A stretch of DNA of 32,000 nt from an uncultured Chloroflexia bacterium (lineage in GTDB: Bacteria > Chloroflexota > Ktedonobacteria > Ktedonobacterales > JADMIN01), in assembly GCA_963718915.1 (NCBI GenBank), contig CAVRAI010000007.1, positions 90,001-122,000 on the forward strand. Direction: 5' to 3'. The notes beneath the pieces were generated by a model. It was not told the DNA's origin. It saw only the letters and a list, made by a program, of their open reading frames with translations, and made no database searches. Made by a program: the position numbers and the translations under genes. Within the stretch, counting starts at the first letter, position 1. Every line of letters starts with the position of its first letter. This document shows positions 4,985 to 32,000 of the stretch, piece after piece.

Positions 4985-4985
4985 G

Positions 4986-5816: not shown

Positions 5817-5939
5817 AGGTCACAACTCCCTTCGTTACTGTCCTCAGGGATTGTGCCACGTGCGAACGTCTACCTGCATCCGTCAGTGGTTCAGGGGATT
5901 CCTGGCCCTTTGGACAGGCAGCTTCATTTTCTCGCGAGA

Positions 5940-6875: not shown

Positions 6876-6896
6876 TGAGGGAGTTTGGCTCGTGCG

Positions 6897-7466
6897 TCAT
6901 GAGCGGCCCTCCATCTCGGGGTGTGTGGCGCCTGCGAGGCCCGGCGGCTGGAGCCGTTCGCGCATCTGCGCCATGGCGCGGTGCAGCCGCGAACGCACGG
7001 TGCCCGATGGGATGCTCAGCATTGTCCCAATCTCGGTGGCGTCCAGGCCCGCGTAGAAGCGCAGAATCACGATTGCGCGCAGGTCGTCTGGCAGCGCGTT
7101 GATGGCGGCGCGGAGATCCAGCGCCCCGGTGTTATTGCTCGTTCCGGGGTCTTCTTCGAGTGTGACCAGCAGGTGGAGATGCTGGGCGTCGGTTTCTTCG
7201 GGCAGGGAGCGCATCTGCGCCTGTTGCTGCCCCTTGAGACCGCGCCGCCACTGGCGACAGACATTCAAGGTGATTTGCAGCAGCCAGGGGCGCACGGCAT
7301 CCAGATTGCGCAGTGTTGGCCAGGCCTGCCACGCGCGCATGGAGGCTTCCTGCACGGCGTCCTCGGCCTCCGCTGGCCCGATGAGCGCAGCAGCCAGCCG
7401 CAACATGGCAGCCGCGTGGAGCGGTACGATGGCGGCAAAGCTCCTCGCACTCTCAGCGCCATGCAT
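6897..7466 (-). CDS. ECF-type RNA polymerase sigma factor (sigma-70 family, regions 2 and 4)
   Basis: AEDAVQEASMRAWQAWPTL...RPWLLQITLNVCRQWRR (region 2) and LPDDLRAIVILRFYAGLDATEIGTMLSIPSGTVRSRLHRA (region 4 HTH). Start chosen at ATG 7466, preceded by GGAGGGGAGCGCGAGAG. The track ORF extends to 7541. Confidence 0.85.
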   Translation of the reverse strand: MHGAESARSFAAIVPLHAAAMLRLAAALIGPAEAEDAVQEASMRAWQAWPTLRNLDAVRPWLLQITLNVCRQWRRGLKGQQQAQMRSLPEETDAQHLHLLVTLEEDPGTSNNTGALDLRAAINALPDDLRAIVILRFYAGLDATEIGTMLSIPSGTVRSRLHRAMAQMRERLQPPGLAGATHPEMEGRS

Positions 7467-7654
7467 CTCTCGCGCTCCCCTCCATCGGTGGCTCGCCCAG
7501 TCAGTCACCCGCCTGGATAGGAGATACACCCACAGAGGCAAAGTGTTCAGTCTCGCGTAAAATCAGGCGCAACCTCAGCATACACGCGCTACTGAACACA
7601 GCGATAGAGATGTCTATCGTGGTGGGATAGAGTTCGACTTGTACTCAGGTATAT

Positions 7655-9460
7655 CTACTTTGGGGCGGGATAGACCGAAAAATAGTAGAACATGCCGACC
7701 GCATGGCTATTGCCCAGCCAGAGACCAACGTGGCCATATGACGGCGTCTCACTGGATTCATCGTGGTAGATGCCAACCAAGTTATCGCGCACAAAACACA
7801 AATAGTCCCGACCACGCATGATCACCGCTAGATAGTTGTTGGCATCCTTCCCAGTCTGGACAGCATCGCTGTGATCGTTGCTCATGAGGACTATTCGTTG
7901 CGCCGTCGCGCCATTTGCCACATGCATGCGAGCCAGCATCCACCCACCCGACGAGGTTAACGTAAACACGACCTTGTCAGCCCCGTCGGCGCTTTCGTGC
8001 AAAACGACGCCGATGTCACTCGGAGGAGTAACACCCTTCAGTCCGGCTGTCAACTCAACCGTGGCGTCACCATACTGCTGCGGCAACACAGCCTCCATAG
8101 CTCGCCCGTCTGGCGCGCCCGTCAAATAATAGCCGTCAGCCTTGAAGGAATAGCTACCATCATCCACCTTCGCGGCATGATTCGGCCAGGCGCCGTCGTT
8201 GGTGCGGAAGTCGATGGTATAGTAGGGCGACTCGTAATCAATATGCTGCTCGATGAGGTCGGAATACCGGAATACCTGGATTCCCTGGGCAACTAGACCA
8301 ACAATGATCGCCACGACCGCGAGCGAGAGTATCGCGATCTGGCTCGCCTTGAGCCAGTGTGGCCAGGTTGTCCCCAGCCGCCGCGTCGCGGGATGGCCAG
8401 TCTGTGCCTCGCTTGCCAGCCGGAGCTGTGAGGGCAGAAGCGGAGTGAGCAATTCGAGCGTGCCTATGCTAAGCTGCGTCAGAGTTCCAGTCACATCGCG
8501 CAGACTGAGATGGGTGCGGGCCACGATGAGACGCGAGAGGCGCTCGCTGTCGGCGAGCTGCTCCGCTGACGCTTCGTCCGAAACGGGCCACGAGATCGAG
8601 CGTTCGGTGGTCGCGAGTGTATATGCGGTCGCCTGAGACGTCCCATTCTCTATGATGCTCCCCTTGAGATGCACATTGTCGTCGACCTTATAGAACGCGC
8701 GCGCATCATGCCAGGCGAGGGGCTGCTCCCTGTCGCGGCGGCCAGCGATCTGACGTATCCCCCAGTCGTCGGCTACGATCTGTACCTCCTCCACCCGTCC
8801 CACGCCACGTAGCCGCTGCACGACGACGACGATGAATCCGATGAGGCTTAGCAGAGTGGTTAATGCGAACAGGCCCAGCATGATGAGGAACATGGGGCGC
8901 ATCCATGCTGTGATAGGGCTACCATCGAGGTAAGGCGAAGCGACAACAAAGGCAGCGATGCATATCGCGCTCACGCCGAGGCTCACGAGCAGCATCGCGG
9001 CAGACTGACCGAGCGTCGAGTGCGAGCGACGACGTTTCGCCGATCCGAATGGCCCGAACGTGACAGGACGAATCGGCAGTTCCGAGATGGGAAGCGGCTC
9101 AGGCTGCTCGGCGGCGAGCGGGGCAAGTTTGTCGTCGCCAGATATCGCTGCCGCACGTACACGCTCCGCCTGGGAGCGGGCGTCCCGCATGAACGGGCGC
9201 AATCGTTGCAGGACCGATCCCAGTGTGCTGACGCCGAAAAACGCAATGGTCATGCCGCCGAGGGCGTACGCCGAGAACCAGAAATGTTGCCAGTATAGCT
9301 CGTACCCGTTCTGGAACGCCAGCCAAACCTGCCAGCCCGCGTAGATCGCAACGCTCAGTGACGCAAGCCCGAGGATCCACAACAGTGCCGGGATAACTCC
9401 CAGTGACGAGTCTGCCTGTGGCCTGTACCTGTGTGAGGTATCGTCGCCTTCAGTGGTCAT
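7655..9460 (-). CDS. Multi-pass membrane protein with C-terminal extracytoplasmic beta-sandwich (ConA-like lectin/glucanase-type) domain; hypothetical
   Basis: 601-aa ORF with hydrophobic helices near aa 20-85, 155-215 and 378-400. The C-terminal 190 aa (YSFKADGYYLTG...VELTAGLKG...VVFTLTSSGGWMLAR...YLAVIMRGRDYLCFVRDNLVG...GHVGLWLGN...FYYFSVYP) has the strand pattern of jelly-roll lectin-like domains. The domain call is inference. Confidence 0.7.
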   Translation of the reverse strand: MTTEGDDTSHRYRPQADSSLGVIPALLWILGLASLSVAIYAGWQVWLAFQNGYELYWQHFWFSAYALGGMTIAFFGVSTLGSVLQRLRPFMRDARSQAERVRAAAISGDDKLAPLAAEQPEPLPISELPIRPVTFGPFGSAKRRRSHSTLGQSAAMLLVSLGVSAICIAAFVVASPYLDGSPITAWMRPMFLIMLGLFALTTLLSLIGFIVVVVQRLRGVGRVEEVQIVADDWGIRQIAGRRDREQPLAWHDARAFYKVDDNVHLKGSIIENGTSQATAYTLATTERSISWPVSDEASAEQLADSERLSRLIVARTHLSLRDVTGTLTQLSIGTLELLTPLLPSQLRLASEAQTGHPATRRLGTTWPHWLKASQIAILSLAVVAIIVGLVAQGIQVFRYSDLIEQHIDYESPYYTIDFRTNDGAWPNHAAKVDDGSYSFKADGYYLTGAPDGRAMEAVLPQQYGDATVELTAGLKGVTPPSDIGVVLHESADGADKVVFTLTSSGGWMLARMHVANGATAQRIVLMSNDHSDAVQTGKDANNYLAVIMRGRDYLCFVRDNLVGIYHDESSETPSYGHVGLWLGNSHAVGMFYYFSVYPAPK

Positions 9461-9568
9461 GCCCAGTTGCGCTCCGGTTTATCTGCGCTGTGATAGGCCA
9501 CGCCGACTACAGTTGGATTGCAGCGGCGAGACCATATCCATGATGACATCGCGAAAGGATACTCAAAG

Positions 9569-10066
9569 CTATGAGCCGTTCGCCTGCCCGTCGAGGACGG
9601 CGAGCACCTCGGCGGCGTGGCCCTCGGGATGCACCTTCTCCCAGACGTGCTCGATCACGCCGTCTGGCCCGATGGCGAAGGTCACGCGCGAGATGCCCAT
9701 ATACGTCTTGCCGTACATGCTCTTCTCGCCCCAGACGCCGTACTTCTCCGTCACCTCGCCGCCTTCGTCGGAGAGCAGCGTGAACGGCAGGCCGTATTTC
9801 TCGGCGAACTTCTGGTGCGACTGGACGCTGTCGCGGCTGATGCCCAGCACGGGAACGCCGCGCTGCTCCAGCGTGTGCCAGTTATCGCGGAAGCTGCACG
9901 CCTCGGTAGTGCAGCCGGGGGTGTCGTCTTTGGGGTAGAAGTAGAGCACTACGTGATGTCCACGGAGCGTCGAGAGCGTCACCATGCTGCCGTCACTCGC
10001 GGGCAGCGTGAAATCCGGCGCGGGTGTCCCCGCCACCGGGATGTTATTGGTCGCGTCTGCTGTCAT
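9569..10066 (-). CDS. bcp: Thiol peroxidase, Bcp-type peroxiredoxin
   Basis: APDFTLPASDG...VVLYFYPKDDTPGCTTEACSFRD is the canonical Bcp/PrxQ active site. AAGGAGG RBS upstream of the ATG. Confidence 0.9.
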   Translation of the reverse strand: MTADATNNIPVAGTPAPDFTLPASDGSMVTLSTLRGHHVVLYFYPKDDTPGCTTEACSFRDNWHTLEQRGVPVLGISRDSVQSHQKFAEKYGLPFTLLSDEGGEVTEKYGVWGEKSMYGKTYMGISRVTFAIGPDGVIEHVWEKVHPEGHAAEVLAVLDGQANGS

Positions 10067-10111
10067 GAAATTGCCTCCTTATGCTCAAGCATACCGCAGA
10101 TTGCAAGATAG

Positions 10112-10717
10112 TTATAGCCAGCCTTTTTCTTCGGCGATATGCGCCGCCTCGATACGATTGTGCGCGTTGAGCTTCTGCATCGCCACCGAGAGATAGTTGC
10201 GCACGGTGCCCTCGGAGAGATAGAGCGAGGCGGCAATCTCGGCGATACTCGCGCCATGGGCAGCCGCCGCCAGCACGTCGCGCTCGCGCTCGGTCAGCGG
10301 GCTGACGCCGTCACTCAGGGCGGAGACCGCCAGTGTCGGATCAACCACCCGCTCGCCCGCCATCGCCCGGCGGATGGCCGAGGAAAGCTGCGCCGCCGGG
10401 GCATCTTTGAGCAGGAAGCCGACGACTCCGCTCTCCATCGCTCGTCGCAGGTAGCCGGGACGCCCGAATGTCGTCAGCATCAGGATGCGGCAGGCTGGCA
10501 ACTGCGCGTGCACCTGCGCGGCGGCGGTCAGGCCGTCGCAGCCGGGCATCTCGATATCCAGCAGCGCCACATCCGGCTTTGCGGCAAGCGCGGCGGCGAC
10601 CACCTCATCGCCACGGGCAACCTCCGCCACGATCTCCATATCAGCCTCCAGTGAGAGCAGCGCCACCAGCGCGCCCCGCACCATCGCCTGATCTTCGGCC
10701 AACAGAATGCGAATCAT
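10112..10717 (-). CDS. NarL/FixJ-family response regulator (REC + LuxR-type HTH)
   Basis: MIRILLAEDQAMVRGAL...DVALLDIEMPGCDG (receiver domain) and LTERERDVLAAAAHGASIAEIAASLYLSEGTVRNYLSVAMQKL (LuxR HTH). Start at ATG 10717 rather than the track start 10753. Confidence 0.9.
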   Translation of the reverse strand: MIRILLAEDQAMVRGALVALLSLEADMEIVAEVARGDEVVAAALAAKPDVALLDIEMPGCDGLTAAAQVHAQLPACRILMLTTFGRPGYLRRAMESGVVGFLLKDAPAAQLSSAIRRAMAGERVVDPTLAVSALSDGVSPLTERERDVLAAAAHGASIAEIAASLYLSEGTVRNYLSVAMQKLNAHNRIEAAHIAEEKGWL

Positions 10718-10831
10718 GGATGCCGCCTTCTCTCGCGCACATCGGGCATACATCGCCGTCCGATACTAGCAGTTAACGCTTTCCAGCGACGATACGCCAG
10801 TGATGAATGACATTTCTTGCTACTCATGGTC

Positions 10832-11013
10832 GGCTGGCGACTGAAGTCGTGCCTGAAGGGCCTCGGTTGCTGCGCGCGCTCCGCCACAAAACCCGCCGTC
10901 GCGGGTTCACAGAGCTGCTCGCCAGCGGGTATCCCGTTGGGTTACGGTCTGGTCAGTCCGCGCAGGCGGACTTCGTGGCCGCAGGCCCTTCAGGCGCGGT
11001 TTGAACCGCCCGC
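10832..11013 (+). repeat. Copy A of a ~180-nt multi-hairpin dispersed intergenic repeat
   Basis: The 5' 18 nt (ggctggcgactgaagtcg) are identical, and the 3' 59 nt (10955-11013) are 57/59 identical, to the reverse complement of 31041-31215. Internal hairpins include aacccgc-cgtc-gcgggtt and agtccgc-gcag-gcggact. Closing stem gcctgaagggcc (10851-10862) pairs with ggcccttcaggc (10984-10995). Confidence 0.85.
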
Positions 11014-11203
11014 GCTGCTCACCCAGCGCGTGTCCCTCCTATTTTCTAAAACTACATTAACCGCCCGCGTTTCTCGCCAGATGTCATAGCTTCTCATTCC
11101 CCATGTAACGCCGCTTGACATCGCGGGGACTATTGGGCACGGTAATGAGGACGGCGTGAACAGCGTCCACTGAACGATGGCATTGGGAGGAGAGAAAGAC
11201 ATC

Positions 11204-11752
11204 ATGAGCGGATCAACAGACCCACAGAGGCAGGCGGCGACGCTGATCGCGCGTTTCGACGCGGCGTGCGACGGCTTCCTCGTGGCCTTCGCCCAGGCGC
11301 CTGATGAGGCGCTGCCCTATACACCCGCTGGCGAGGAATACGCTCTGGGTATTCTGCCGCTACACCTGCAAGACTCGATGAATCACTATCTCGATGTCTA
11401 CGACCGTATGGCTGCCGCGAACTTTGGGCCGGTGGATCTGGGCGCCGACCCCACGCTCGCGCAGCAGGAGGCCGCACAACACCAGCGACTCGTCACGACA
11501 AAGCCCACCAGCGCGGACCGTGCCGCATTGCTCGACGACCTCAATGCGACCCACAAGAGGGTTACGGAGCGGTTCGGCGTGCTTGACGACGCGGCAGTAA
11601 CGCGCCAATCCGATGTTGTCTATTCCCCCGGAACCGATCCCTATCCCACCTCGGTCGCCGCTATCTTCGGCTGGCTGACCGACCATTACGACGAACACAT
11701 CGTGCAGACCGCGCAACTGCTGGCGCACTGGCAGGCGGAACAGGCGCGATAG
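11204..11752 (+). CDS. DinB-family (DinB_2-like four-helix-bundle) protein
   Basis: ORF 11177-11752; ATG 11204 follows GGAGGAGAGAAAGAC. His-containing helices ([14 protein letters not shown]; [12 protein letters not shown]) are typical of the DinB/YfiT superfamily. Family call is from memory. Confidence 0.65.
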
Positions 11753-11772
11753 TCTCCACTGAAAGGACGGAC

Positions 11773-13164
11773 ATGGTGGCGACGGAACAGTATGATTGTC
11801 TGATTCTCGGCTCGGGACAGGCGGGCGGGCCGCTCGCCACAGCGCTGGCGCAGGCGGGGCGCAAGACCGCCATCGTCGAGCGCGTGCATGTCGGCGGCAC
11901 CTGCATCAACGAGGGCTGCACCCCCACCAAGACGATGGTCGCCAGCGCGCGCGTCGCCTATCTCGCCCGGCGCGGCGGCGACTATGGCGTCGATGTTGGC
12001 GATATGACGGTGGATATGCAGCGGGTACGCCAGCGCAAGCGCGATATCGTCGATAGCTTTCGCGGGGGCAGCGAGCGCCGCCTTGAGGACAAGCCAAACC
12101 TCGACCTGATCTATGGCGAGGCGTGCTTTACCGGGCCAAAGACCGTGCGGGTCACGCTGAACTCCGGCGTCATCCGCGAACTGACCGCCGAAACGATCTT
12201 TATCAATACGGGAGAGCGGCCAGCCGACCCGAATGTGCCGGGGCTCGATCCGGCGGGCGCCCTCAACTCCACCTCGATCATGGAGCTGGACGCCGTGCCG
12301 TCGCACCTACTGGTCATCGGCGGCGGCTATGTCGGGCTGGAGTTCGCCCAGATGTTCCGCCGCTTCGGCAGCCAGGTGACGATTATCCAGCGCGGCAGGC
12401 AACTGCTCGGACGTGAGGATAGCGATGTCGCCGAGGCCGTGGCGCAGATTCTGGCGGAGGATGGCATCGAGATTCTGCTGAACAGCGCACCGACGCAAGC
12501 GACGACGGCTGGTGATAGCGTGACGCTGCACGTGAAGACGCCGGACGGCGAGCGCGATCTCACCGGCTCGCATGTGCTGGCGGCGGCGGGGCGCGTCCCC
12601 AACACCGAGGCGCTGAACCTCGCGGCGGCGGGCGTCGCCACCAACGAGCGCGGCTACATCCAGGTGAACGAGCGGCTGGAGACGAATGTGCCGGGCATCT
12701 ACGCGCTGGGCGATGTGAAGGGGCCGCCCGCCTTCACGCACATCTCCTACGACGACTTCCGCATCATCCGCACCAATCTGCTGGAGGGTGGAAACGCCAC
12801 GATCACCGACCGGCTCGTGCCCTATACCGTCTTCATCGATCCGCAACTTGGGCGTGTCGGGCTGGGCGAGGACGAGGCGCGACAGCAGGGGCGCAACATC
12901 AAGGTGGCGAAGATGCCGATGTCTTGGGTGGCGCGCGCCGACGAGGTGGATGAGTCGCGCGGCTTCATGAAGGCGGTGGTGGATGCCGGGACACGGCAGA
13001 TTCTGGGCTGCGCGATCCTCGGCATCGAGGGCGGCGAGCTGATGGCGATGATAGAGATCGCGATGCTGGGGCGCCTGCCCTACACGGTCCTGCGCGACGC
13101 GGTCTTCGCCCACCCCACCCTCGCCGAGTCGCTCAACAACCTCTTCTCGTCGCTGGATGTATGA
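11773..13164 (+). CDS. Class I pyridine nucleotide-disulfide oxidoreductase (FAD-dependent; RclA/YkgC- or 'mercuric reductase-like' subgroup)
   Basis: GSGQAGG FAD-binding motif, redox-active [13 protein letters not shown], second Rossmann [12 protein letters not shown], and C-terminal FAHPTLAES His-Glu dyad region. No NmerA domain and no C-terminal Cys pair. Confidence 0.85.
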
Positions 13165-13203
13165 TTGGAGATCAACCGGTATTCGGGGACGAGAGTCAGC
13201 GCC

Positions 13204-14865
13204 CTAATGGATCTCGCTATCGGATGTCGCCAGTAGCTTTGCCAGCGCGTCGTCGGCTGCGTCCTGCGTTGCCTGCGCGCTATCATGGCGGAGTATGCTC
13301 AGCCGATCCATCACTGGCGCGGGCGACGGGGAACGGAGCTGTCCAAGCGCCTGAACAACCGCTGTTCGCACATCTGATCGCGAATCCTGGGATGCGGTCA
13401 CGAGATGCTCGATGGCTGCCGGGGTTCCCGCTGAGCTTAACGCCACCGCCGCCGCTGTGCAGACGCCTGCGTATTCGTCTGTGAGCAGTTGCGCCAACGA
13501 TTCAACTGGGGCGCTGCTTCCCAACTGTCCAAGGGCTGTGGCTGCCGCGGCGCGCACCTGCCAGTCGTCGTCTTCGAGTGCCCGGCAAAGTGGATCGCCG
13601 ACGCCGCGCGTTCCCAGAATCCGGGCTGCCGCTACTCTGACGTAGGGGTTACTGTCTGTCAGGCAACGAACCAGGCTCATCCAGCGGCGCCTGCTCTCTC
13701 TGCACGCCGAGCGACCGCAATGCGGCGACGCGCACGTATTCGCTGGAATCGTCGAGCATTGGAAGGATGGCCGAAAGCAGCGCCGGATCGTCGCGCGCTC
13801 CAAGCGCCAGAACAGCGGCGGCGCGCACATGGGCGCTGATGTCGTTCAAAGCACTGATGAGCGGTTGAGACGGAACGTGCTTCCCAAGAGATCCCAGGGC
13901 CAGTGCGGCGGCCTCGCGAATAATATCATCTGGGTCGTTCAATGCTGCCATAATCGGCTCGAAGGCTATGCCCTCTCCCAGGGAGCCCAGGGCCAACAAA
14001 GCTGTGAAGCGCACCTGTGTGCGTCCGCTTTCGAGGAGGCGTAGCAGCGCGGGTATCACCGTACGATCATCGAGACGACCCAGCGTCGTGGCGATGGCCG
14101 CCTGTGCCTCAACATCGTCTGTGGCAAGTTCGGCGACCAGGGCGTCACGCGGGGCAGAGCGTCCCAAGGTTCCCCAGGGCGCGCGCCGCTGTATCGCGCA
14201 CCTCCGTAGCTGGATGCGTAGAGACACGCCATCAGACTGTCAATCGGCGCCTGCTCTCCGAGATGCGCCAGCGCGCGCGCGATTGCCTCGCGCACCTCGG
14301 CATTCGCATCACCCATTGCCCTCAGCAGGGCTGGTATGGAGGCAGATGTACCCACATACTGCAGAGGTTCTCGCGGCAATCAGGCGCACGGTGCCATTCA
14401 TGTTCCCCAGCGCCATTTCCATGCGCACTCGCGCCACGTCCGCTAATGCCCGGTCAGCGAGTCGCCACTTCTGGCGCAAGTGGCAAGAAGGCGCTTCCAC
14501 CGTATGGCCTGTCCGCTGTGCGCGGCCTTGATCAGTAACTCGATCCATTCCAGGATGATTACCCGCGCGATGTCGGGCGCATCATCTGGCCCACTGGCGC
14601 CAGCCGCTGCCCGTCCCGATTCCTCCGCAGACTCCGGCAATTCGGAGAGCGACCGCACCGCCAGCGTCAGCGCCGCATCGCCAATATCGCCTTCTGGAAG
14701 CATTCGCTGGGCGACCAATGTCGTCAACCAATCGCGCGCGAACCCTTTACTGCCATCGTCAGTCGCGGTTGCCAGAATTCCGATAAATAGCTGAAGAACG
14801 CCCTGCCATTGCTGCGCAAACCGATGTCCGCGCAATACCTCCCAAATAGCTGTACGGGCAGCCAC
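13204..14865 (-). pseudogene. HEAT-repeat (PBS-lyase/EZ-HEAT type) C-terminal region of the upstream NACHT gene, split over at least 7 frame segments
   Basis: HEAT consensus (D..VR..AA.ALG.LG...A...L) continues across track ORFs 14443-14865, 14309-14548, 14056-14379, 13649-14227 and 13204-13830. A short frame-2 piece I translated (STHPATEVRDTAARALGNLG, about 14165-14220) also carries it. See findings. Confidence 0.7.
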
Positions 14866-16462
14866 ATCGCCTGACTGTCAATCGTCGCGCCAGCGCCTCC
14901 GCCGCCAGGAATTCCTGGAATGTCTGGTGAATGAATCGGTAGCGGTCACGGGCTACGGCCTCGATCAGCCCGGAATTGATGACGCTCCTGGCAAGGTCGG
15001 CGCGGTTGAAACCATCATGGTGCTCGCGCTGGATCTCGCCAAGAAACGCCAGCAGGGCATCCATAGAGAACATTCCGGGGGAGGATTGCAGGCGCAACGC
15101 GATCTCGCCGAGGATTTCGCGCAGCACAAGGCGTCGGGCCATGTCGGCTTCACGCACCTTGAGCACCTCGTCGCTGACTTCGCTATAGAGCGCCGCGCGA
15201 TTAGGTGGAAGCCTGCCGATCCGTCCAAAGATGAGCGCGGCCAGACTGAAGAGCAACGGATTGTCTCCCCAGAGCGCCGCCTGGCGATGATGCTCAATCA
15301 GGCCGACAAAGATGGCTGGCGAGCCAGCCTCGCCACGCAGGAGCTTCCTGGCCAGTTGCTCGCGCATGGGATGATCGAGCGGGCGTAGCTCCCATTCCGC
15401 GAAGTTTCCCTGTGACAGGTCTGTGCGGGCGTAGTCGGTAAGGCGCGACCCAACCACCCATGCGCTACCCCAGCGCGACGAGAAGTCGGCGATCAGTTTC
15501 GTGACGTCCTCGCGCGCCTCAGCAGGGACATTGTCAAGCCCATCGAGACAGATGAGCGCCTGGCTGTCCTGCATCACCTGCCAGATAACATTCGCATATC
15601 CGGCGTCCAGCTCCAAATCGGTGACGACGGTATCGAGATACTGGCGCAGTGAGATGTGCGACTGCGCAAAGTGGGGCAGCGAGATGAACACGGGCAGCGG
15701 CGCCTGCTCATCACTCTGGGCATGCAGCGCGGCCTGAGTGACCAGCCGCTTCAACATCGTCGTCTTGCCGCTGCCAGGGCCGCCGAGCACAACAATCCTG
15801 CGCGCCGGGCTTTTCTCCAGAGCATCCTCGCCGCTCTCCGCGATGACATCCGCCTGCTCGCGCTCGGCAGGCAACCGGTCACTGGCGTCATCCGTGGCTT
15901 GCCCAATTGCGGCGCTTTCCGCGGTGTCGAGTGATGGGTCGCGGCGTAGCCGCAGCGGCTGGAACACCTGATTGAGCGCGAATTCATGCACTGGCTGTGT
16001 CGGCAACGACACCGTATTGTATCGGTGAAGCACCGCCGCGAGATAGTGCGCGCGGGCGGTCAGGGTATCTTGCGGATAGGCGTCATGGTAGCGCTTGGCA
16101 AGGTAGCCGACGGGCGCAAGGAGAACCAGCAGCGCCAGCCCAATGTAGGTAGGAGCGGGATACTGCGCCACGAGTGAATTGAACAGCCCCCAGGAGGTGA
16201 TCTCTTTCCAGAATGGATCCCACCCCTTATGGATCAGCGTCGGCGTCGCGTTGGTGACATACGCGGTTGCCACGGCGGCAACTACGAGCCACCAGCGAAA
16301 CAGAATCCAGCGCATCCAGCGTGGCAGCCGCGCGATCACCCGAACGCCCAATGGCACGCCACGAGCCGAAGCAGGCGGTACGGACGGACGAGTCGAAGAG
16401 CCAGTTACACCGCTCTCGGCTTCTGGCTGCGCTTCTTCGACGGGAGGAGCCTGTTTCATCAT
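14759..16462 (-). CDS. 2TM-NACHT STAND NTPase (intact N-terminal 1.6 kb of a NACHT-HEAT gene; the last ~35 codons of this ORF are out-of-frame read-through)
   Basis: TM helices WILFRWWLVVAAVATAYV and TYIGLALLVLLAPVGYL. Walker A VVLGGPGSGKTTMLKRL (about 15758-15784), Walker B ALICLDGLDNV, and YRFIHQTFQEFLAAEALA. The ATG overlaps the stop of the upstream kinase gene (ATGA). Confidence 0.8.
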   Translation of the reverse strand: MMKQAPPVEEAQPEAESGVTGSSTRPSVPPASARGVPLGVRVIARLPRWMRWILFRWWLVVAAVATAYVTNATPTLIHKGWDPFWKEITSWGLFNSLVAQYPAPTYIGLALLVLLAPVGYLAKRYHDAYPQDTLTARAHYLAAVLHRYNTVSLPTQPVHEFALNQVFQPLRLRRDPSLDTAESAAIGQATDDASDRLPAEREQADVIAESGEDALEKSPARRIVVLGGPGSGKTTMLKRLVTQAALHAQSDEQAPLPVFISLPHFAQSHISLRQYLDTVVTDLELDAGYANVIWQVMQDSQALICLDGLDNVPAEAREDVTKLIADFSSRWGSAWVVGSRLTDYARTDLSQGNFAEWELRPLDHPMREQLARKLLRGEAGSPAIFVGLIEHHRQAALWGDNPLLFSLAALIFGRIGRLPPNRAALYSEVSDEVLKVREADMARRLVLREILGEIALRLQSSPGMFSMDALLAFLGEIQREHHDGFNRADLARSVINSGLIEAVARDRYRFIHQTFQEFLAAEALARRLTVRRCGCPYSYLGGIARTSVCAAMAGRSSAIYRNSGNRD

Positions 16463-19122
16463 GCATCCCCCTCTGGTTTATCAGGCGTATGCAGTTCCGC
16501 CTCGACAATGCGGGAAAGTTCGGCCGCGTCGCCATAAAGTGGCGCATTCTCGAGCGCGAGGCGCAGTGCACCCAACGCTTGCAGTAGCAGGTCTTTCTGC
16601 TCCACGGTAGTCGATGCGCCGATGGATCGCTGCCAGTACGCCAGCGCCAGATGGTAAAGGACATCTGCCTGATCTGGATTTCCTCCCAGGCTGTGCACGA
16701 ACTCCACCAATGCCTCGGCGTGGCGTGCGAGACCCAGCAGCGCCTTGCCACGAACAAACGGCAATCGATACTGAACCGTCGCATCAGACTCCCTATCTAT
16801 GCACGCCTCGGCTTTGGCGCAAGCTTGCAATGCCTGCTCGTAAGCCTCCCAGCGCTCCTCGTCCTCCGGGTGTTCCTGCTCGCTCAGAGCGAGCGCAAAG
16901 TCCATCCAGTATTCCGGCTTGTTCGGAGCCATTTCGACAACGCGGCGCGCGAGCTGGAGGTGTTCTTCGGCCTGACCGATAGCGCCATACGTCTTTGCGA
17001 GACGATGCCAGAATGCCGTTTCATTCTCAGGTGTATGAGCGCGCGGGCGAGCGTCAGGCTGCGACGGCAGCCCCAGGCAATCCGCAAGCGCCCCGAGCCG
17101 CCCATGTACCTGGCGTGCTGTGGGACGCATCTCCGGATCGAGTGCGAGACAGGCAGATACAAGGTTGTCAAGCTCTTCAAGCGCTGCAGTGGCCAGCGCC
17201 GTCTCCTTCTGGGAAACATCACTTCCACTCAACAACTGCGAGAGCGGCCCATCGCTCAGCGCTTTCACCTCCGCATCGCCTAGATGCCGACTCGGCCCGC
17301 TGGCATGGGCAGCGCACCACGCGGCGAAGGGCCCGGCGGTCATCGTCAATTGCGGGTCAGGTTGGTGCGGATAGGAGGCTTGTCCGCTTACCCCGGCAAA
17401 CAACTCGAAGAGCACAACGCCGAACGCATAAACATCGCTGGCGGGTTCGACCGCCTCCATCCCCAGCCACTGCTCTGGAGGCATGTATGGAGGAGTACCT
17501 GCGACAGGTCCACGAGAGCCCATCCTTACGATGATACTTGTCGCTCCATGAAAATCTGGAGCTTTCTGCCCGGACTTCGGATAATCTCGCCCAGCAACGA
17601 ATGCGCGCGTCTGCCGCAGCCCATCTAAGTCATCGTCGGCGGAACCCTGATCGAACCGCGAATCATCGGCACGACCATATAAATTCCGTACCATTTCCAA
17701 AATGCGATAGGTGCTCGCCTCATCTTCTTTGCCCTGCTCGTTCTCGTCTCCGAGGTGCGCAAGCAGCCACACGCGCGAGAGCCCATAATCGAGAATCCGT
17801 GCTGACCAATTCGCGGCAATGAGCATGTTTTCTGGTTTGATGTCACAATGTACATTGGGCAGTGGACGCTCGTGATCTGAATCACGTGTGTGGAGCGCAT
17901 CGAGCGCCGCCACAATATCCAGCGCCCAACTGAACACGGCATCCAGAGAAAGGGTTGATGATCTGCCCGGCCCGTGCATCTGTTGTAGCTTGTCACGTAA
18001 CGAGCCTTCTGGTAGGTATTCCATCACCAGACTTGGTAGATCATCGAGCGCCGGTATCTGTACCATTTCGTCAATATGGACAATGGCCGCATGAGGCCAC
18101 AGATGAGTAGCGACCAACGCTTCCTGCTCAAAATCCGCCAGCATTGCTGCTCTTTGCTCCCTCGATGCCGAAGCAAGGCGGTCAGGGCGTACAAACTTGA
18201 TAGCGCGATATTTGCCGCCCTGCAAAGCATCGGAGCCCCACACAACTAAACCCATGCCACCACTGACTGTCCCAATTACCGTCAGATCAATCGTCGCGTA
18301 GTCTGTTAGCCTCGTGCCGACTGTTATCTCGGGGATCTGTCTTAGACGTGATTGCCGACCGTTTGCGGAGGAGCCATCGGTCTTCCCGTCGCCACCCGTT
18401 GGCTGTTCACCTGAGGGCATCTCGTCGTTAGCCCATGGGTTCGGAACCTTGGTGCGTGAAATAATCACGCCAGGATTGGGTGAGTAAAGCCTCTCAAAAG
18501 TGGAGTGTTTTTGATCTTGCTGAAGCCGACGAATCCATGATATGTCAGGCTGGGTGGGAGTCTGGATCGCCTGCTGGTCAAGCGGATCAGGATGTGATAT
18601 GTCTGGCGCACTGCTCGTGTACTCACTCGTCCCTGCGCCCGACGCGATGAAGGAAACAGGCTTCTCTTCTGGCTCATCCTCTGTGTTTTGATCTCGCTCA
18701 CTCATGCTACGGCGTTTCACACTGGATGTCGTAATCGGAGGCTCCGAGACAATCAATAGTGTTTCGACACCATCTTCTCGAAAGGGGCTGATATTAGAGC
18801 GCTCGATAGCCTCCAAATAGCGTTCGTATCCTTCATCTAGGCCGTATTGCGCCACATTGTTCCAGAGCTTGCGGTGTTCCTCGTCGGGTAGGAGGGCAGC
18901 CACGTCAGGTGCCAGGAGCGCGGGATGTGCGCGCAGATAGGCGCGCGAGACTTCCCAATCGGGCGCAGCAAGCCATTCACGGATAGCGCGCGATAGCGCA
19001 TCATGCGTGTCAGCGCCGCGCGAGGCTGCCGGAGGAGGCGCCGCCTCATTCTGCGATCCCTCAGGCGCATTATCCTGGCGTTGTTGCTGTCTCTTTGAGC
19101 GGCGTTTACCCCAATCCGGCAT
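16459..19122 (-). CDS. Ser/Thr protein kinase (Hanks-type) with C-terminal TPR-like helical repeats and a long N-terminal extension
   Basis: Gly-loop IGTVSGGMGLVVWG, YRAIKF (catalytic Lys), HCDIKPENMLI, DYG in place of DFG, GTPPYMPPE, DVYAFGVVLFEL. The C-terminal 200 aa are helical repeats (AFWHRLAKTYGAIGQAEEHLQLARRVVEMAPN...). GGAGGG lies before ATG 19122. Confidence 0.85.
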   Translation of the reverse strand: MPDWGKRRSKRQQQRQDNAPEGSQNEAAPPPAASRGADTHDALSRAIREWLAAPDWEVSRAYLRAHPALLAPDVAALLPDEEHRKLWNNVAQYGLDEGYERYLEAIERSNISPFREDGVETLLIVSEPPITTSSVKRRSMSERDQNTEDEPEEKPVSFIASGAGTSEYTSSAPDISHPDPLDQQAIQTPTQPDISWIRRLQQDQKHSTFERLYSPNPGVIISRTKVPNPWANDEMPSGEQPTGGDGKTDGSSANGRQSRLRQIPEITVGTRLTDYATIDLTVIGTVSGGMGLVVWGSDALQGGKYRAIKFVRPDRLASASREQRAAMLADFEQEALVATHLWPHAAIVHIDEMVQIPALDDLPSLVMEYLPEGSLRDKLQQMHGPGRSSTLSLDAVFSWALDIVAALDALHTRDSDHERPLPNVHCDIKPENMLIAANWSARILDYGLSRVWLLAHLGDENEQGKEDEASTYRILEMVRNLYGRADDSRFDQGSADDDLDGLRQTRAFVAGRDYPKSGQKAPDFHGATSIIVRMGSRGPVAGTPPYMPPEQWLGMEAVEPASDVYAFGVVLFELFAGVSGQASYPHQPDPQLTMTAGPFAAWCAAHASGPSRHLGDAEVKALSDGPLSQLLSGSDVSQKETALATAALEELDNLVSACLALDPEMRPTARQVHGRLGALADCLGLPSQPDARPRAHTPENETAFWHRLAKTYGAIGQAEEHLQLARRVVEMAPNKPEYWMDFALALSEQEHPEDEERWEAYEQALQACAKAEACIDRESDATVQYRLPFVRGKALLGLARHAEALVEFVHSLGGNPDQADVLYHLALAYWQRSIGASTTVEQKDLLLQALGALRLALENAPLYGDAAELSRIVEAELHTPDKPEGDA

Positions 19123-19637
19123 ACACCCTCCAGTGCTTCATGGCGAAAGTGACGCATCCTGCCATAGCTTGATAGAACCTGGGTCAGCGTGCGAAATGCG
19201 CAGGTAACACCGGGTATTACTGGTGAGCGCTTGTGACAACGCTGGGAATTTGCGCGGCTAAGCGAAGGTGATCGCCGCGGACCTGAAGCGCAAACTGAGC
19301 AATCCGGGGGATTGGTATAGTATAGGCAGTAGAGGCGGTTGATTGTCAACGTCCTCCGGATATGCAGGCTGACAATCCTGCACAGTGTCCAGCACATCGC
19401 TCAGGGCCATATCATACTGCCAATGATGGAACTATGTCACCTATACGTTTATTCCTGTATTCTCCTCCCATCCTTTATCCACAACACCCTAGATCAGCCG
19501 CCGCATCCTCGTTCCTCCAACCGTGACTGGCGCGTGTGGTCGGCGCTGTCGGCTGTGACGCATCTGTAACATCCAGGGGATATGGTGACTCTGAGCGGGT
19601 TACGACAGGCGAAAATGCCCGCTCAGAGGGAAGGAGC

Positions 19638-20156
19638 ATGAACACTATGTCGAAAGCCAGTATCACCAGAATGTGGATAGCGGGTCTGATTGTTCTCGTC
19701 GCCGGGCTTGCCATGGGAGGCATTAGCCTTGGGTTGATGCTCGCCAATGGCGGCACGTGGGTTCCGGCAGCGTCCGGGAGCGGCTCAGACTTCATTCCCA
19801 CCATCAATGGATTCTTCTGGACAACCATCGGATTCATGATTGTGGGCTTCACGATTGCTGTGGCGGGTGGCATCGTGCAGTTAGCCGCCTGGATTGGGGC
19901 GCTCGTCAACACCTATCAGATCGAGGATAAGGCGTGGTTCATCATTTTACTGGCTGGCGGTATCCTCGGACTCGTCTCTGGCCTGTTCGGCTTTGCCGCG
20001 ATGGTAGCCTATCTGGTCGCCGGGCCAGATGGTATGCCCGCGGGCCAACCACGAGTAGCGCCAGCGCCACACATGCCACAGGCGTACCCGATGCCCGCGC
20101 CGACCGCGCCGCAGCCCGTGGCGCCGCAGCCACCCGAGTACTCGATTATACGCTGA
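19638..20156 (+). CDS. Small integral membrane protein (about 4 TM) with Pro-rich C-terminal tail; hypothetical
   Basis: ATG 19638 is preceded by GGGAAGGAG. Four hydrophobic segments are followed by PAGQPRVAPAPHMPQAYPMPAPTAPQPVAPQPPEY. The track ORF starts earlier (19536), but that part lacks an RBS. Confidence 0.6.
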   Translation: MNTMSKASITRMWIAGLIVLVAGLAMGGISLGLMLANGGTWVPAASGSGSDFIPTINGFFWTTIGFMIVGFTIAVAGGIVQLAAWIGALVNTYQIEDKAWFIILLAGGILGLVSGLFGFAAMVAYLVAGPDGMPAGQPRVAPAPHMPQAYPMPAPTAPQPVAPQPPEYSIIR

Positions 20157-20435
20157 TATAGCCTCTGCCAGTCATAACGCGATTGCCTGGGCCGTAACGA
20201 CACCTGCCCTGCTGATGGCGCAATGATCCCCCAACTCACGCTAGATGAGCCTGGGATCACAAACGCCTGGGAGCCGCAAGAGGGTACGACCGCCCAGGCC
20301 GTCGCGAATGGAGGGCATCCGCGCCGTGCCACACGCGAGGATGCGTGCGGCGCCAGGATCATTGCGAGCGAGACTTCACACCGAGCGGCTCCCCAACCGC
20401 CGGGAGGTGAAGGGTGTTCCCGTCGCGATGAGGAC

Positions 20436-20464
20436 ATTATAGAACTAATGTTCTAATAGGTCAA
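20436..20464 (-). promoter_or_regulatory. Near-consensus sigma-70-type promoter (TTGACC-17 nt-TATAAT) with an AGAAC-N4-GTTCT palindrome in the spacer
   Basis: The minus strand reads TTGACC (20464-20459), tattagaacattagttc (17 nt), TATAAT (20441-20436). The perfect palindrome tAGAACtaatGTTCTa spans 20440-20455. It overlaps a second perfect palindrome, AATAGGTCAagTGACCTATT (20455-20474). Confidence 0.55.
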
Positions 20465-20625
20465 GTGACCTATTCCTCCCCTTTGCGCCGCACACTTATG
20501 TACACAAGCGGCGGCTGCCATGCATGCTATAGTTGATGATATGACAGGCGATGATTCGACGCGGACAGATGGGTAGATAGGTAGATGCGACCGGACGGGC
20601 GCCGGACAGAGAGGATGACCTACAG

Positions 20626-21402
20626 GTGAGTACTAATCAGCCGCCATCAGCGGCGCTTCAGGATCTGCGCGAGCAGGTCGCGCTCGTGACAGGCGCGAGC
20701 AGTGGCATCGGTCAGGCAGTGGCCAGGGCGCTGGCGCAACGCGGTGTGCGTGTGGCGCTGGCGGCGCGTCGGCTGGAGCGTTTGCGGGCGCTCGCCGAGG
20801 AACTGACGAGCGACGGGCAGGGAGAGGCGCTGGCGCTGGCCTGTGACGTGCGCAATCCTGAGGACGTGCGGGCGGCGGTGAAACAGGCGCTTGATCGCTG
20901 GGGCAAGCTCGATATTCTGGTTGCCAATTCCGGCTTCGGCTATCGCGCGCCGCTGGTGGATGGCGACATTACTCGCTGGAAAGACATGATCGACACCAAC
21001 GTCTACGGCCTGCTGCTCACGCTGAAATATGGCGTCGCGCCGATGCTGGAGCGCGGGCAAGGACATGTGATCGTGACGTCGTCGGTGGCGGGTCGCGTGC
21101 CAACGATGCTTGGCTCGGCCTACTGTGGCAGCAAATTCGCGGCGACGGCCATCGCGGACGTGCTGCGGCAGGAGGTCGGCCCGCGGGGTGTGCGCGTGAC
21201 GACCATCGAGCCGGGGGTCGTTATCTCCGAGTTCCAGCAGGTCGCGGACTATCCCCCCGGCATCCTCGACAACATGCTGAAGGGCGCGACACCGCTTGTC
21301 CCCGCCGACATCGCTCGCGCGGTGGTCTTCGCCATCGAGCAGCCAGCGCACTATGCCATCTCTGAGATGGTGGTACGGCCAACCGGCCAGGCGTTTCCGT
21401 AG
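20626..21402 (+). CDS. Short-chain dehydrogenase/reductase (SDR) family oxidoreductase
   Basis: VTGASSGIGQAVA cofactor motif, NSGF, and catalytic S...YCGSK. GTG start at 20626. Confidence 0.9.
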   Translation: MSTNQPPSAALQDLREQVALVTGASSGIGQAVARALAQRGVRVALAARRLERLRALAEELTSDGQGEALALACDVRNPEDVRAAVKQALDRWGKLDILVANSGFGYRAPLVDGDITRWKDMIDTNVYGLLLTLKYGVAPMLERGQGHVIVTSSVAGRVPTMLGSAYCGSKFAATAIADVLRQEVGPRGVRVTTIEPGVVISEFQQVADYPPGILDNMLKGATPLVPADIARAVVFAIEQPAHYAISEMVVRPTGQAFP

Positions 21403-21409
21403 CCACGTC

Positions 21410-21594
21410 GGCTGGCGGCTGAAGCCGCGCCTAAGGAACCTCGCTGCGCTCTGCCACAAAGCTTGCCTTCGCAGGCTCCAGACCGAGAAGATGCGCGGAC
21501 TTCCAGAACATCTCCCCGTCGGCGTGAGGTTCTGAATGAAATCCGCGCAGGCGGGTTTTGTTGTCGTAGGCCGTTCAGGCGCGGCTTACGAACG
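21410..21594 (+). repeat. Copy B (diverged) of the multi-hairpin dispersed repeat
   Basis: Same module order as copies A and C: ggctggcggctgaagccgcgcct ... ctgccacaaagcttgccttcgcaggctcc ... atccgcgcaggcgggtt ... ggccgttcaggcgcgg. Stems show compensatory changes (gcggc-tgaa-gccgc versus gcgac-tgaa-gtcgc). Starts 8 nt after the SDR stop. Confidence 0.75.
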
Positions 21595-21805: not shown

Positions 21806-22928
21806 TTACGAGGTCGCCGCGCTGAGCGCCTCGCCTGCCCGCGCGGTCAGGTTGGCCTGGATGAAGTGATCCATCTCGCCATTCAGGTAGGCGACGGTGT
21901 CGGACTGGTCGGCGCCCGTACGATGGTCTTTCACCAGCGAGTAGGGATGGATCGTCACCGTGCGAATCTGGTTGCCAAAGTCGGCCTCGACGTGCACCCC
22001 CTTGAGCCGCGCCGCCTCACGCTCGCGCTGCTCGATCTCCAGTTCGTAGAGCTTCGACTTGAGCACGCGGAGCGCCAGCTCGCGGTTCTGGATCTGCGAG
22101 CGCTCGTTCTGGCAGGTGACGACAATGCCCGTTGGCTTGTGGCGGATGCGTACGGCGGAGTCGGTCTTGTTGAGATGCTGGCCGCCCTTGCCGGTCGAGC
22201 GGAAGGTGTCCACATCCAGGTCTTCGGGCCGGATCTTGATCTCAATCGGATCCTCGCCGATATCGGGCATCACTTCAACCTTGGCGAAGGACGTCTGTCT
22301 GCGATGGGCGGCGTCGAAGGGTGAGAGGCGAATCAGCCGGTGCGCGCCCGCCTCGCCACGCAGGTAGCCGTAGGCGTACGGCCCATCCACGCTGAAGGTC
22401 GTGCTCTTGATGCCAGCTTCTTCGCCGGGCATCTCGTCCAGCAGTTCCACTTTGTAGCCGTGTGACTCCGCCCAGCGCATATAGGCGCGCTGCAGCATCT
22501 GCACCCAGTCCATCGCGTCGGTGCCGCCATTACCCGCGTGGATCGAGATGATGGCCGATTTAGCGTCGTGCGGCCCGTTGAGTAGCAGCCGGAAACGCTG
22601 CTTTTCCAGGTCTTCTTCGATCCGCACGAGCGATTCGTCGATCTCGCCCTCGAGCTGGCTATCTGGATCACTCTCGAGCAGTTCGGTCAGTTCGTGGAGT
22701 TCGGCGAGGCGCGCGTCGAGCGATTCCCAGACAAACACCTCGTCACGCAGGCGGCTCATCGTCTGCATCTGTCGCTGCGCATGCACACGGTCGCCGTAGA
22801 AATCAGGCGCGAGCGACTCTTCCTCGATAGCCGCTATCTGCTGCTTTTTGGCAGCGAGGTCAAAGATACACCGTTATTTCATACACCCGGCGTTGTAGTG
22901 CTTCGATGCGGGTCATTAGTTCACTCAT
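21806..22928 (-). CDS. prfB: Peptide chain release factor 2, with programmed +1 ribosomal frameshift (frame 0: 22928-22863; +1 frame: 22861-21806)
   Basis: The main ORF has the SPF tripeptide (RLSPFD) and GGQ (STGKGGQHLNKT). Upstream I read ATG AGT GAA CTA ATG ACC CGC ATC GAA GCA CTA CAA CGC CGG GTG TAT GAA ATA ACG GTG TAT CTT TGA C. This 22-codon frame-0 leader ends in the classical TAT CTT TGA C shift site and continues in +1 as DLAAKKQQIAAIEEESLAPDFYGDR... Confidence 0.9.
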
Positions 22929-24852: not shown

Positions 24853-25818
24853 TTAGCGGGCCAGCACATCGGCCAGTGCCAGCATCTCCTGCGTCACCTT
24901 GTTGCAAGGGGCGAGCGCGTCTTCGAGCGGGATTTCGGTGAGCAGCCCCTCCACCAGCCCGATGACCACTCCTGAGCGCCCCGCCAGCAACGCCCGCACA
25001 GCGCCCGCGCCAAACCGGCTGGCGAGCACACGGTCGCGCGCGGTTGGCGAGCCGCCGCGTTGGACGTGGCCAAGCACGCTCAGACGCGCCTCAAATCCGC
25101 TGGGGTGGCTGCCGAGGTAGTCGGCGAGATCGCGGGCGCCGGGATGCGCGCCTTCGGCGACGACGACGATGTAATGGCGCTTGCCACGGGCATAGCTCGC
25201 GCGCACATCCTCAGCCACCACATCCAGATCGACCGGGCGCTCCGGGATCATTGCCAGTTCCGCGCCCGCCGCGATGGCTGCCATCATCGCCAGGTAACCC
25301 GAATTGCGGCCCATCACCTCGACCAGAAAGGCGCGCTGGTGCGAGGTCGCGGTATCCTTGAGCCGATCAATGCACTCGAGCGCCGTGTTGAGGGCGGTAT
25401 CAACGCCAATGGTCGCCTCGGTCACCGCGAGATCGTTATCGATGGTGGAGGCGACTCCCACCACTGGGAAACCCAGTTGATGCAGCGCCAGAGCGCCCTG
25501 CTGCGAACCGTTGCCGCCGATGACCACCAGCCCATCAATGCCCGCGGCGTTCAGCCGGGTAGCCGCCTCCTCCTGCGTTTCGCGCTCGCAAAACTGGGGG
25601 AAGCGGGTCGAGCCGAGGATGGTACCGCCACGCTGGAGTATTCCGGCGACGGACCGGCTATCAAGTGGCTCAAAGCGGTTCGCGAGCAGCCCGGCGAACC
25701 CGTCACGGATGCCGGTCACCTCGACCTGTTCCGCCGCTGCCGTCCGCACCAGCGCGCGCACCGCCGCGTTCATGCCGGGCGCGTCACCACCACTGGTCGC
25801 GACCGCGATGCGCTTCAT
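24853..25818 (-). CDS. pfkA: ATP-dependent 6-phosphofructokinase
   Basis: MKRIAVATSGGDAPGMNAAVRALVR, GIDGLVVIGGNGS, TIDNDL, VEVMGRNSGYLA, LGHVQRGG. ATG 25818 is preceded by AAAGGAGTGGAAGG. Confidence 0.9.
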   Translation of the reverse strand: MKRIAVATSGGDAPGMNAAVRALVRTAAAEQVEVTGIRDGFAGLLANRFEPLDSRSVAGILQRGGTILGSTRFPQFCERETQEEAATRLNAAGIDGLVVIGGNGSQQGALALHQLGFPVVGVASTIDNDLAVTEATIGVDTALNTALECIDRLKDTATSHQRAFLVEVMGRNSGYLAMMAAIAAGAELAMIPERPVDLDVVAEDVRASYARGKRHYIVVVAEGAHPGARDLADYLGSHPSGFEARLSVLGHVQRGGSPTARDRVLASRFGAGAVRALLAGRSGVVIGLVEGLLTEIPLEDALAPCNKVTQEMLALADVLAR

Positions 25819-31040: not shown

Positions 31041-31215
31041 GCGGGCGGTTAAAACCGCGCCTGAATGGCCTGCGGCCACGAAGTCCGCCTGCGCGGACTC
31101 GCCAGACAGCGTCTCGTGGATCGCACCCAGCCACGGGCGACTGTTTGAACCTGCGCAGGCAGGTTTCGCGGCGGAGCGGAGCGAGGCCATATAGGCGCGA
31201 CTTCAGTCGCCAGCC
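31041..31215 (-). repeat. Copy C of the multi-hairpin dispersed repeat (inverted relative to copy A)
   Basis: The reverse complement begins ggctggcgactgaagtcgcgcc and ends agtccgcgcaggcggacttcgtggccgcaggccattcaggcgcggttttaaccgcccgc (57/59 identical to copy A). It ends 4 nt from the ffh stop. Confidence 0.85.
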
Positions 31216-31218
31216 GTC

Positions 31219-32000
31219 CTACCGGCCGAACGGGCTACCTCCGCCTAGCCCACCCAGTCCGCCCAGACCACCACCAAGGCTGCCTAATCGCCCTCTGCGG
31301 CCTTTTCTGCCAGGCTGCTGCATCCCCATCACCTGCTTCATCATCGTCTGCGCCTGTTTGAATGAGGCGAGCAACTGGTTGATCTCCTGCGGGGTCGTGC
31401 CGCTACCCTTCGCGATGCGCCGCTTGCGGCTGCCGTTGAGGATTTCGGGGTTGTGGCGCTCCTCCATCGTCATCGAGAGGATGATCGCCTCGGTCTGCTT
31501 CATCTGGTCGCCTTCCAGCGCGGCCTTGACCTGCGGATCGCTGAGCGCTTTGCCCATGCCGGGGATCATTTCGAGCAACTGCGCCATCGGCCCCATCTTG
31601 CGCATACTGCGCATCTGCTGCAGGAAGTCTTCGAGGTCGAACCGGCCTGTGCCCATCTTGCGGGCCATCTTCTCGGCCTGCTTCTCGTCGATCTGCTCGC
31701 GGGCGCGCTCGATCAGCGACATCACATCGCCCATGCCCAGAATGCGCTGTGCCAGCCGGTCGGGGTAGAACTGCTCCAGCGCGTCGAGCTTCTCGCCTGT
31801 GCCCATGAACTTGATCGGCACGCCGGTCACCTGGCGCACAGAAAGCGCCGCGCCACCACGGGCGTCGCCATCCATCTTGGTCAGGATGAGGCCGGTCAGC
31901 CCGACGGTCTTGTTGAACTCGTCGGCCACGCGCACGGCGTCCTGTCCGGTCATCGCATCCACCACCAGCAGCACTTCCTGCGGCTGGGTGCGTTGGCGGA
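31219..32000 (-). CDS. ffh: Signal recognition particle protein Ffh, C-terminal part (G-domain end + M domain); the 5' end lies beyond the window
   Basis: LLVVDAMTGQDA, LTKMDGDARGGAALS, the Met-rich M domain (MRSMRKMGPMAQLLEMIPGMG) and a Gly-rich tail. The frame stays open upstream of the track start to position 32000 (...RQRTQPQEVLLVV). Confidence 0.95.
   Translation of the reverse strand, partial: RQRTQPQEVLLVVDAMTGQDAVRVADEFNKTVGLTGLILTKMDGDARGGAALSVRQVTGVPIKFMGTGEKLDALEQFYPDRLAQRILGMGDVMSLIERAREQIDEKQAEKMARKMGTGRFDLEDFLQQMRSMRKMGPMAQLLEMIPGMGKALSDPQVKAALEGDQMKQTEAIILSMTMEERHNPEILNGSRKRRIAKGSGTTPQEINQLLASFKQAQTMMKQVMGMQQPGRKGRRGRLGSLGGGLGGLGGLGGGSPFGR

Follow-up and report, generated by a model that had tools for sequence, protein, structure and literature searches.

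The locus described here lies between a membrane-protein gene (19638-20156) and a divergently oriented SDR gene (20626-21402) in a stretch of 32,000 nucleotides of Ktedonobacterales DNA, hereafter called the window, whose numbering is used throughout. The Ktedonobacteria are a large-genome, actinomycete-like soil group in the Chloroflexota. A first-pass annotation of this DNA had spoken of an AT-rich island in a genome of ~65% GC; the island is there, with a G+C content of 0.50 at 20400-20550, and the surroundings are indeed G+C-rich, the value for the whole window being 62% and not 65%. On the minus strand, at 20464-20436, the promoter scan found TTGACC-17-TATAAT with a score of 11/12. No other site in the 32 kb reaches 11/12 (n = 1); in dinucleotide shuffles such matches number 0.05 on average, and at least one is seen in 5% of the shuffles. 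No gene had been seen downstream of this promoter, which holds for protein genes, yet a conserved structured RNA lies at 20429-20254. The features of the locus are the following:

20464-20459, minus strand: -35 hexamer TTGACC (promoter scan and direct reading)
20441-20436, minus strand: -10 hexamer TATAAT (promoter scan and direct reading)
20441-20454: Cheo/LexA-type box, the AGAAC-N4-GTTCT inverted repeat AGAACtaatGTTCT (direct reading)
20455-20474: second palindrome AATAGGTCAagTGACCTATT, perfect 9+9, overlapping the -35 hexamer and outside the conserved element
20429-20254, minus strand: conserved structured small RNA (sRNA), ~176 nt (alignments, covariation and fold)
20426-20364, minus strand: long imperfect 5' hairpin P1-P2-P3 (helices 1-3, with compensatory pairs in each)
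20396-20389, minus strand: apical G-rich loop UUGGGGAG of the 5' hairpin
20351-20328, minus strand: hairpin H3 (helix 4), with loop AUCCUC at 20342-20337
20326-20300, minus strand: hairpin H4 (helix 5), with loop UGCCCUCCA at 20317-20309
20299-20265, minus strand: hairpin H5 (helix 6), 13 pairs, G+C-rich, with loop CCCUCU at 20284-20279; possible terminator
20264-20254, minus strand: tail GUUUGUGAUCC after H5

The promoter is near-consensus, of the sigma-70 type, and conserved. In an alignment, made in the RNA sense, of thirteen related promoters taken from metagenome contigs of Ktedonobacterales, the -35 reads TTGAC, TTGAT or TTGTC at 17-18 nt from a -10 that reads TATAAT, TATACT or TATCAT. 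The 4-5 nt between the -35 and the box vary in sequence as well as in length, the 6-nt discriminator after the -10 is different in nearly every promoter, and conservation picks up again exactly at CAUCG, the predicted RNA start, whose A lies 7 nt past the -10. A functional promoter that has its operator in the spacer and starts transcription at about 20429 would be expected to leave such a footprint.

The box reads AGAACTAATGTTCT on the plus strand and AGAACATTAGTTCT on the minus strand. It takes up the 17-nt promoter spacer, and its final base doubles as the first of the -10 hexamer. Its GTTCT arm is invariant (13/13 promoters) and its AGAAC arm is found in 11/13, the exceptions being AGAAA in L041 and GAAAC in L045, while the N4 between the arms takes eight A/T-rich forms (ATTA, ATTC, ATTG, TTAT, ATCA, GTAA, ATAT and AAAT). 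The bare GAACN4GTTC core occurs once in 32 kb against 0.38 expected, with at least one occurrence in 32% of shuffles, so that it is not significant alone; it is the conservation across the 13 related promoters that places the box above chance. Since the GTTCT arm overlaps the -10, part of the conservation of this arm could come from the promoter. Both the promoter, also kept in the 13 relatives, and the perfect palindrome, with its arms kept and its spacer variable, are confirmed as the first-pass annotation had described them, with all coordinates right. As judged from this comparison, the box behaves as a conserved operator, which would block RNA polymerase when occupied.

The LexA motif of Dehalococcoides ethenogenes, a member of the Chloroflexi, was reportedly identified as GAAC-N4-GTTC in a study of 2002. 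The same motif is that of LexA in Firmicutes and Actinobacteria (PMC3323433). The candidate box of the Ktedonobacterales has what characterizes a Cheo-type LexA operator, as in Firmicutes, Actinobacteria and Dehalococcoides, namely the GAAC-N4-GTTC core with an A/T-rich N4, arms kept around a free spacer, and an overlap with the core promoter; it differs in its flanks, which are A/T in AGAAC...GTTCT and C/G in the Cheo-type CGAAC...GTTCG. From the box alone we infer that LexA is rather likely to be the protein that controls the sRNA, and the sRNA would then probably be switched on by DNA damage. A less probable reading, although one that keeps some weight, is that the sRNA is real and its box is the site of some regulator different from LexA, or is kept only as a part of the promoter, so that the gene would not be damage-inducible. 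In favour of this reading, the core alone is expected 0.38 times per window, the proximal arm overlaps the -10 and the distal arm deviates in two promoters; a search of the 440 kb of DNA analysed with approximate E. coli and B. subtilis queries gave no match to lexA or recA. However, the distal arm persists in 11 of the 13 promoters amid spacer bases that vary on its flanks, and sigma-70 promoters have no base-specific requirement in the spacer. The match to the GAAC-N4-GTTC LexA core is also perfect, with an A/T-rich N4, and to our knowledge no other bacterial regulator uses this core. A reading of GAAC as the -35 of an ECF-sigma promoter was rejected, since the bases found 16-17 nt past GAAC vary.

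The second palindrome, at 20455-20474, is perfect and overlaps the -35, as had been noticed, but it is specific to the window and not a conserved part of the element: relatives carry, for example, AATTGGTGACTTGATT or AATTGGCCCCTTGACC at this place, which suggests that it is probably fortuitous. Farther from the sRNA, a near-palindrome CTTATGTACACAAG (20495-20508, plus strand) is invariant in all close relatives, L040 included, and absent in L041, L044 and L045; it may be the site of some regulator. About 20 nt downstream of it lies a conserved extended -10, TGCTATAGT (20525-20533, plus strand), which probably serves the SDR gene.

In a plain MAFFT alignment, the structure drawn by hand for the RNA that follows the promoter had 92.8% of its cells paired, against 31-47% when the partners were slid, and both partners had changed in 17 pairs, where the controls had 3-7; none of 500 shuffles reached any of these measures. 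A model-guided alignment, which is fitted to the structure and therefore biased in its favour, gave 95.2% paired and 22 double-sided changes, with all six helices contributing. Helix 4 (H3) is 97.8% paired, with two pairs changed on both sides and a conserved CCUC in its loop; helix 5 (H4) is 100% paired, with four such pairs; and helix 6 (H5) has five compensatory pairs, one of which is a window-specific change from G-C to A-U. In L030, H5 is swapped for another hairpin that is still closed by GGCCUGG/CCAGGCC. The UGGGGA loop of the 5' hairpin is invariant in 11/11 sequences. The single-sequence fold, with an MFE of -91.2 kcal/mol and z = -4.4, agrees with the consensus structure, and the window copy is intact, scoring 212 bits with the covariance model. 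A further covariance-model match at 25012-25181 of the window (18 bits, E = 0.02) lies inside coding sequence and was set aside as noise.

The strand of the RNA is the minus strand, as for the promoter, because the pairs include 62 G-U against 4 A-C; pairing amounts to 92.8% when the minus strand is read and to 82.0% for the plus strand. The RNA is better conserved than neutral sites, being 89-93% identical in close relatives, against 64-75% at the third codon positions of the SDR gene, and 62-68% in distant relatives, against 46-54%. Conservation of the RNA stops after the final hairpin, at ~20254, where we infer that the sRNA ends. The 3' tail GUUUGUGAU is U-poor and is not conserved in L041, L044 or L045, and the terminator scan found no match at the 3' end. 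Among the options that the first-pass annotation had offered for the transcript, the small RNA has thus been borne out by a conserved, covarying and structured RNA of ~175 nt directly after the promoter, and we consider it very probable that a real sRNA gene is present at this locus.

The same block could also be regarded as an element acting at the DNA level, one that regulates the SDR gene from upstream or serves in recombination, for example, without any functional RNA. It is strictly linked to the SDR gene, and the breakpoints of rearrangements are clustered a short way past it, as such an element might show, but the 62 G-U against 4 A-C pairs and the helix-specific compensatory changes are RNA signatures, a near-consensus promoter is aimed into the block, and the SDR gene probably uses an extended -10 promoter of its own, from 100 nt beyond the 5' end of the block. 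This makes a DNA element highly improbable.

Even less credible is that the region codes for a small protein, whether through the 142-aa ORF 20009-20437 or as a micropeptide or type I toxin. In every copy one frame does run through the element without a stop, and ORFs were called over the sRNA on the minus strand in the window (20009-20437), in L010 (5304-5825, 173 aa) and in L041 (4640-4882, 80 aa); frames, however, stay open in DNA of high G+C. The 142-aa ORF reads like out-of-frame GC-rich sequence and has no Pfam match, and its start codon (20437) lies within the -10 box and is missing in L009. No protein similarity was found between this ORF and the ORF of L041 over the same element, indels of 1-2 nt separate the lineages (alignment A2), and the amino-acid identity in the ORF frame, 77%, is lower than the 89% nucleotide identity that this pair has over the RNA region. 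Substitutions arrive instead as paired compensatory changes, and no hydrophobic mini-ORF with a ribosome-binding site was found in the region. The earlier statement that no convincing ORF lies here is supported by these results, which gave no sign of the micropeptide or type I toxin that had been offered as further options. The ORFs of 80-173 aa called over the sRNA are very likely spurious and due to the high G+C content.

Homologues of the sRNA were found in one Ktedonobacterales clade only. The SDR gene has many orthologues, and the segment 20254-20625 of the window is conserved upstream of it in L008-L011, L040, L041/L042, L044 and L045; L043, whose SDR is 72% identical, is without the element. 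A metagenome scan with a 19-mer returned six true homologues (L013, L022, L027, L030, L032 and L033), its other matches being 13 lysine riboswitches and 9 chance matches that had the 19-mer alone in common. The lysine riboswitches (L015, L017-L019, L021, L023-L025, L029, L031, L034, L038 and L039) come from other soil bacteria and carry the 19-mer, GGCTCCCCAACCGCCGGGA, at the P3/P4 junction; the four that were tested scored 62-73 bits with RF00168, and the identity of this 19-mer with the 5' hairpin of the sRNA is coincidental. The plasmid collection gave no match to the element, and viral contigs searched with a gapped pattern gave one chance match, unconfirmed by the covariance model. The window's own proteins had no exact match in public assemblies. 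At a more distant SDR locus, on the contig of P0033, two DinB_2-family genes are divergent from the SDR gene, with a gap of 760 nt between that could hold the sRNA.

The constant neighbour of the sRNA is the SDR gene, always divergent, and what lies downstream changes: a membrane protein of 427-451 aa without Pfam domains in L008, L009, L011, L013 and L027/L032, either no gene or one that is convergent in the window, L010, L041/L042 and L044, and an unrelated sulfatase-like gene ~280 nt away in L045. The RNA is therefore independent of the downstream gene, and the pattern fits a stand-alone sRNA, with its own promoter, a conserved structure and no fixed gene downstream. The arrangement in the closest relatives suggests another explanation, in which the conserved block acts in cis as the 5' leader, like a riboswitch or as an attenuator, of the 427-451-aa membrane-protein gene, and the window copy was orphaned by deletion or rearrangement. 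In these relatives the gene starts ~60 nt past the RNA on the same strand and has no obvious promoter of its own, and the synteny of the window is broken just past the block, at 20195-20253. Nevertheless, the block is kept in the contigs without such a gene, the window among them, and in L045 next to an unrelated one; copies without the membrane-protein gene still show compensatory changes, one of them window-specific; the gene constantly linked to the block is the divergent SDR gene and not a downstream one; and the block matches no Rfam riboswitch. A cis-acting leader would show a constant link to the 5' end of one gene family; in five contexts, by contrast, there was no gene downstream, or a convergent or unrelated one. 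We consider the leader an unlikely explanation of the family as a whole, although in the closest relatives, with the membrane-protein gene ~60 nt downstream, the RNA may also be a leader.

The membrane-protein gene of the window itself (19638-20156) has orthologues that are 55-89% identical in Ktedonobacterales MAGs. At seven orthologous loci (L001-L007) the sRNA element is absent; these loci revealed a break in synteny. Three of them (L001-L003) share the gene order of the window and are collinear with its positions 1-13157 and 19523-20194, the homology ending at ~20194, and the right half of the window, with the SDR, prfB, phosphofructokinase (PFK), RsgA, Ppx and YkuD genes, is matched as a block in L009, L010 and L040. 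Between them, the ~60 nt at 20195-20253 have no homology on either side and join blocks that are apart in related genomes. Since this junction is lineage-specific, the adjacency of the promoter and the membrane-protein gene is accidental. The first-pass annotation had expected transcription to run into the antisense of this gene; an antisense role is unlikely, because the unit ends at a GC-rich hairpin, at ~20254, about 100 nt short of the gene. The breakpoints of L010 and L030 likewise lie within the 3' end of the sRNA or immediately beyond it, and from this clustering the downstream side looks like a rearrangement hot spot.

Some other features of the window were recorded on the way. Two islands are absent from L001-L003. 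One, at 7640-9570, has a 601-aa ORF without Pfam domains; the other, at 13160-19520, encodes a HEAT-repeat protein, a NACHT/STAND NTPase (14759-16462) and a Ser/Thr kinase with TPR repeats (16459-19122), and is possibly a defence or signalling island. The prfB gene (21806-22786), for release factor 2, has a classical programmed +1 frameshift site, TAT CTT TGA C, at 22859-22865 on the minus strand, and its 326-aa ORF is without the N-terminus, which the preceding frame encodes. Intergenic repeats of ~190 nt occur at 10828-11013 (plus strand), 21407-21587 (plus strand) and 31041-31219 (minus strand), as well as at 7585-7770 of L003; each folds up as a single long and imperfect hairpin, in which several pairs have changed in a compensatory way from copy to copy, no Rfam match was found, and the family looks like a MITE/REP-type element.

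Comparison with known systems points to the 6C RNA (RF01066) as the nearest functional analogue, with no homology. In Corynebacterium glutamicum, 6C RNA is a LexA-repressed sRNA with a LexA operator, and its level goes up under mitomycin C, as it does when lexA is mutated (PMC5014011). The two are alike in being stand-alone, hairpin-rich sRNAs, 6C being stable, with C-rich loops and a strong housekeeping-type promoter bearing a LexA-type operator. The Ktedonobacterales RNA differs in its length of ~175 nt, its four structural domains and its occurrence in the Chloroflexota, and its loops are three of the CCUC type and one rich in G, whereas 6C has two loops of six C. The operator of 6C lies upstream of the -35 and its repression is partial; the box described here lies within the spacer, which predicts that repression, unlike that of 6C, would be tight. 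The RF01066 covariance model gave no match even at E <= 10, either in the window region or in L044.

In E. coli, the SOS-controlled type I loci tisB/istR, symE/symR and dinQ/agrB also have a LexA box over a short unannotated transcript. These loci do not fit, because here there is neither a toxin mini-ORF nor an antisense partner, nor a divergent RNA pair, and the Ktedonobacterales RNA is far more structured and is conserved as RNA. An SOS type I toxin-antitoxin locus was accordingly rejected: no small hydrophobic toxin ORF was found and the overlying ORFs are unconserved as protein. In Gram-positive bacteria, the sRNAs of the RsaE/RoxS class use unpaired C-rich loop motifs to pair with Shine-Dalgarno sequences. 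The Ktedonobacterales RNA resembles them in presenting its C-rich motifs unpaired in hairpin loops, but the motif is CCUC(C) here and CCCC/UCCC there, and there is no homology, as Rfam gave no match.

Rfam yielded no relevant match for the whole window at the gathering score, nor for the region and L044 in a permissive search (E <= 10). Literature searches aimed at LexA and at small RNAs in the Chloroflexota turned up no paper that deals with riboregulation or the SOS regulon of Ktedonobacteria. With no Rfam match, no homology to 6C and no such paper, the RNA is therefore classed as a new family, that is, a previously undescribed sRNA family of soil Ktedonobacterales (Chloroflexota).

We propose that a stand-alone sRNA gene, on the minus strand from ~20429 to ~20254, is transcribed from the promoter at 20464-20436 under the control of LexA. 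In undamaged cells, LexA bound to the spacer box would keep RNA polymerase out, and after DNA damage the sRNA would be made in quantity. The RNA is predicted to consist of a long 5' hairpin capped by UGGGGA, followed by three hairpins showing CCUC, CCCUCC and CCCUCU. These anti-Shine-Dalgarno-like loops of the CCUC type could pair with the G-rich ribosome-binding sites of mRNAs and lower the translation of the targets. To this proposal as a whole we give a probability of roughly 0.55. The mode of action, pairing with ribosome-binding sites, is put forward tentatively: the ribosome-binding sites read at the locus are GGAGG/GAGG-like, and a crude duplex prediction between the sRNA and the neighbouring translation start regions, that of the SDR gene included, gave no consistent partner.

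The locus thus offers a concrete and testable RNA gene, with a clear promoter, a candidate operator and a secondary structure that has good support. Its covariance model allows the RNA to be annotated in MAGs, where gene callers now put spurious ORFs. If control by LexA is true, SOS-controlled sRNAs, described until now in a few Proteobacteria and Actinobacteria, would reach another phylum, and the LexA box of this clade would be defined. More speculatively, this might be the first regulatory sRNA of the Chloroflexota, repressed by LexA and made in bulk after damage, which with its three anti-Shine-Dalgarno-like loops would bind many ribosome-binding sites, or compete with the 3' end of 16S rRNA, and so slow translation or block division during repair. 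If true, it would be an RNA-based counterpart of the protein SOS checkpoint factors in the mycelial, spore-forming Ktedonobacteria.
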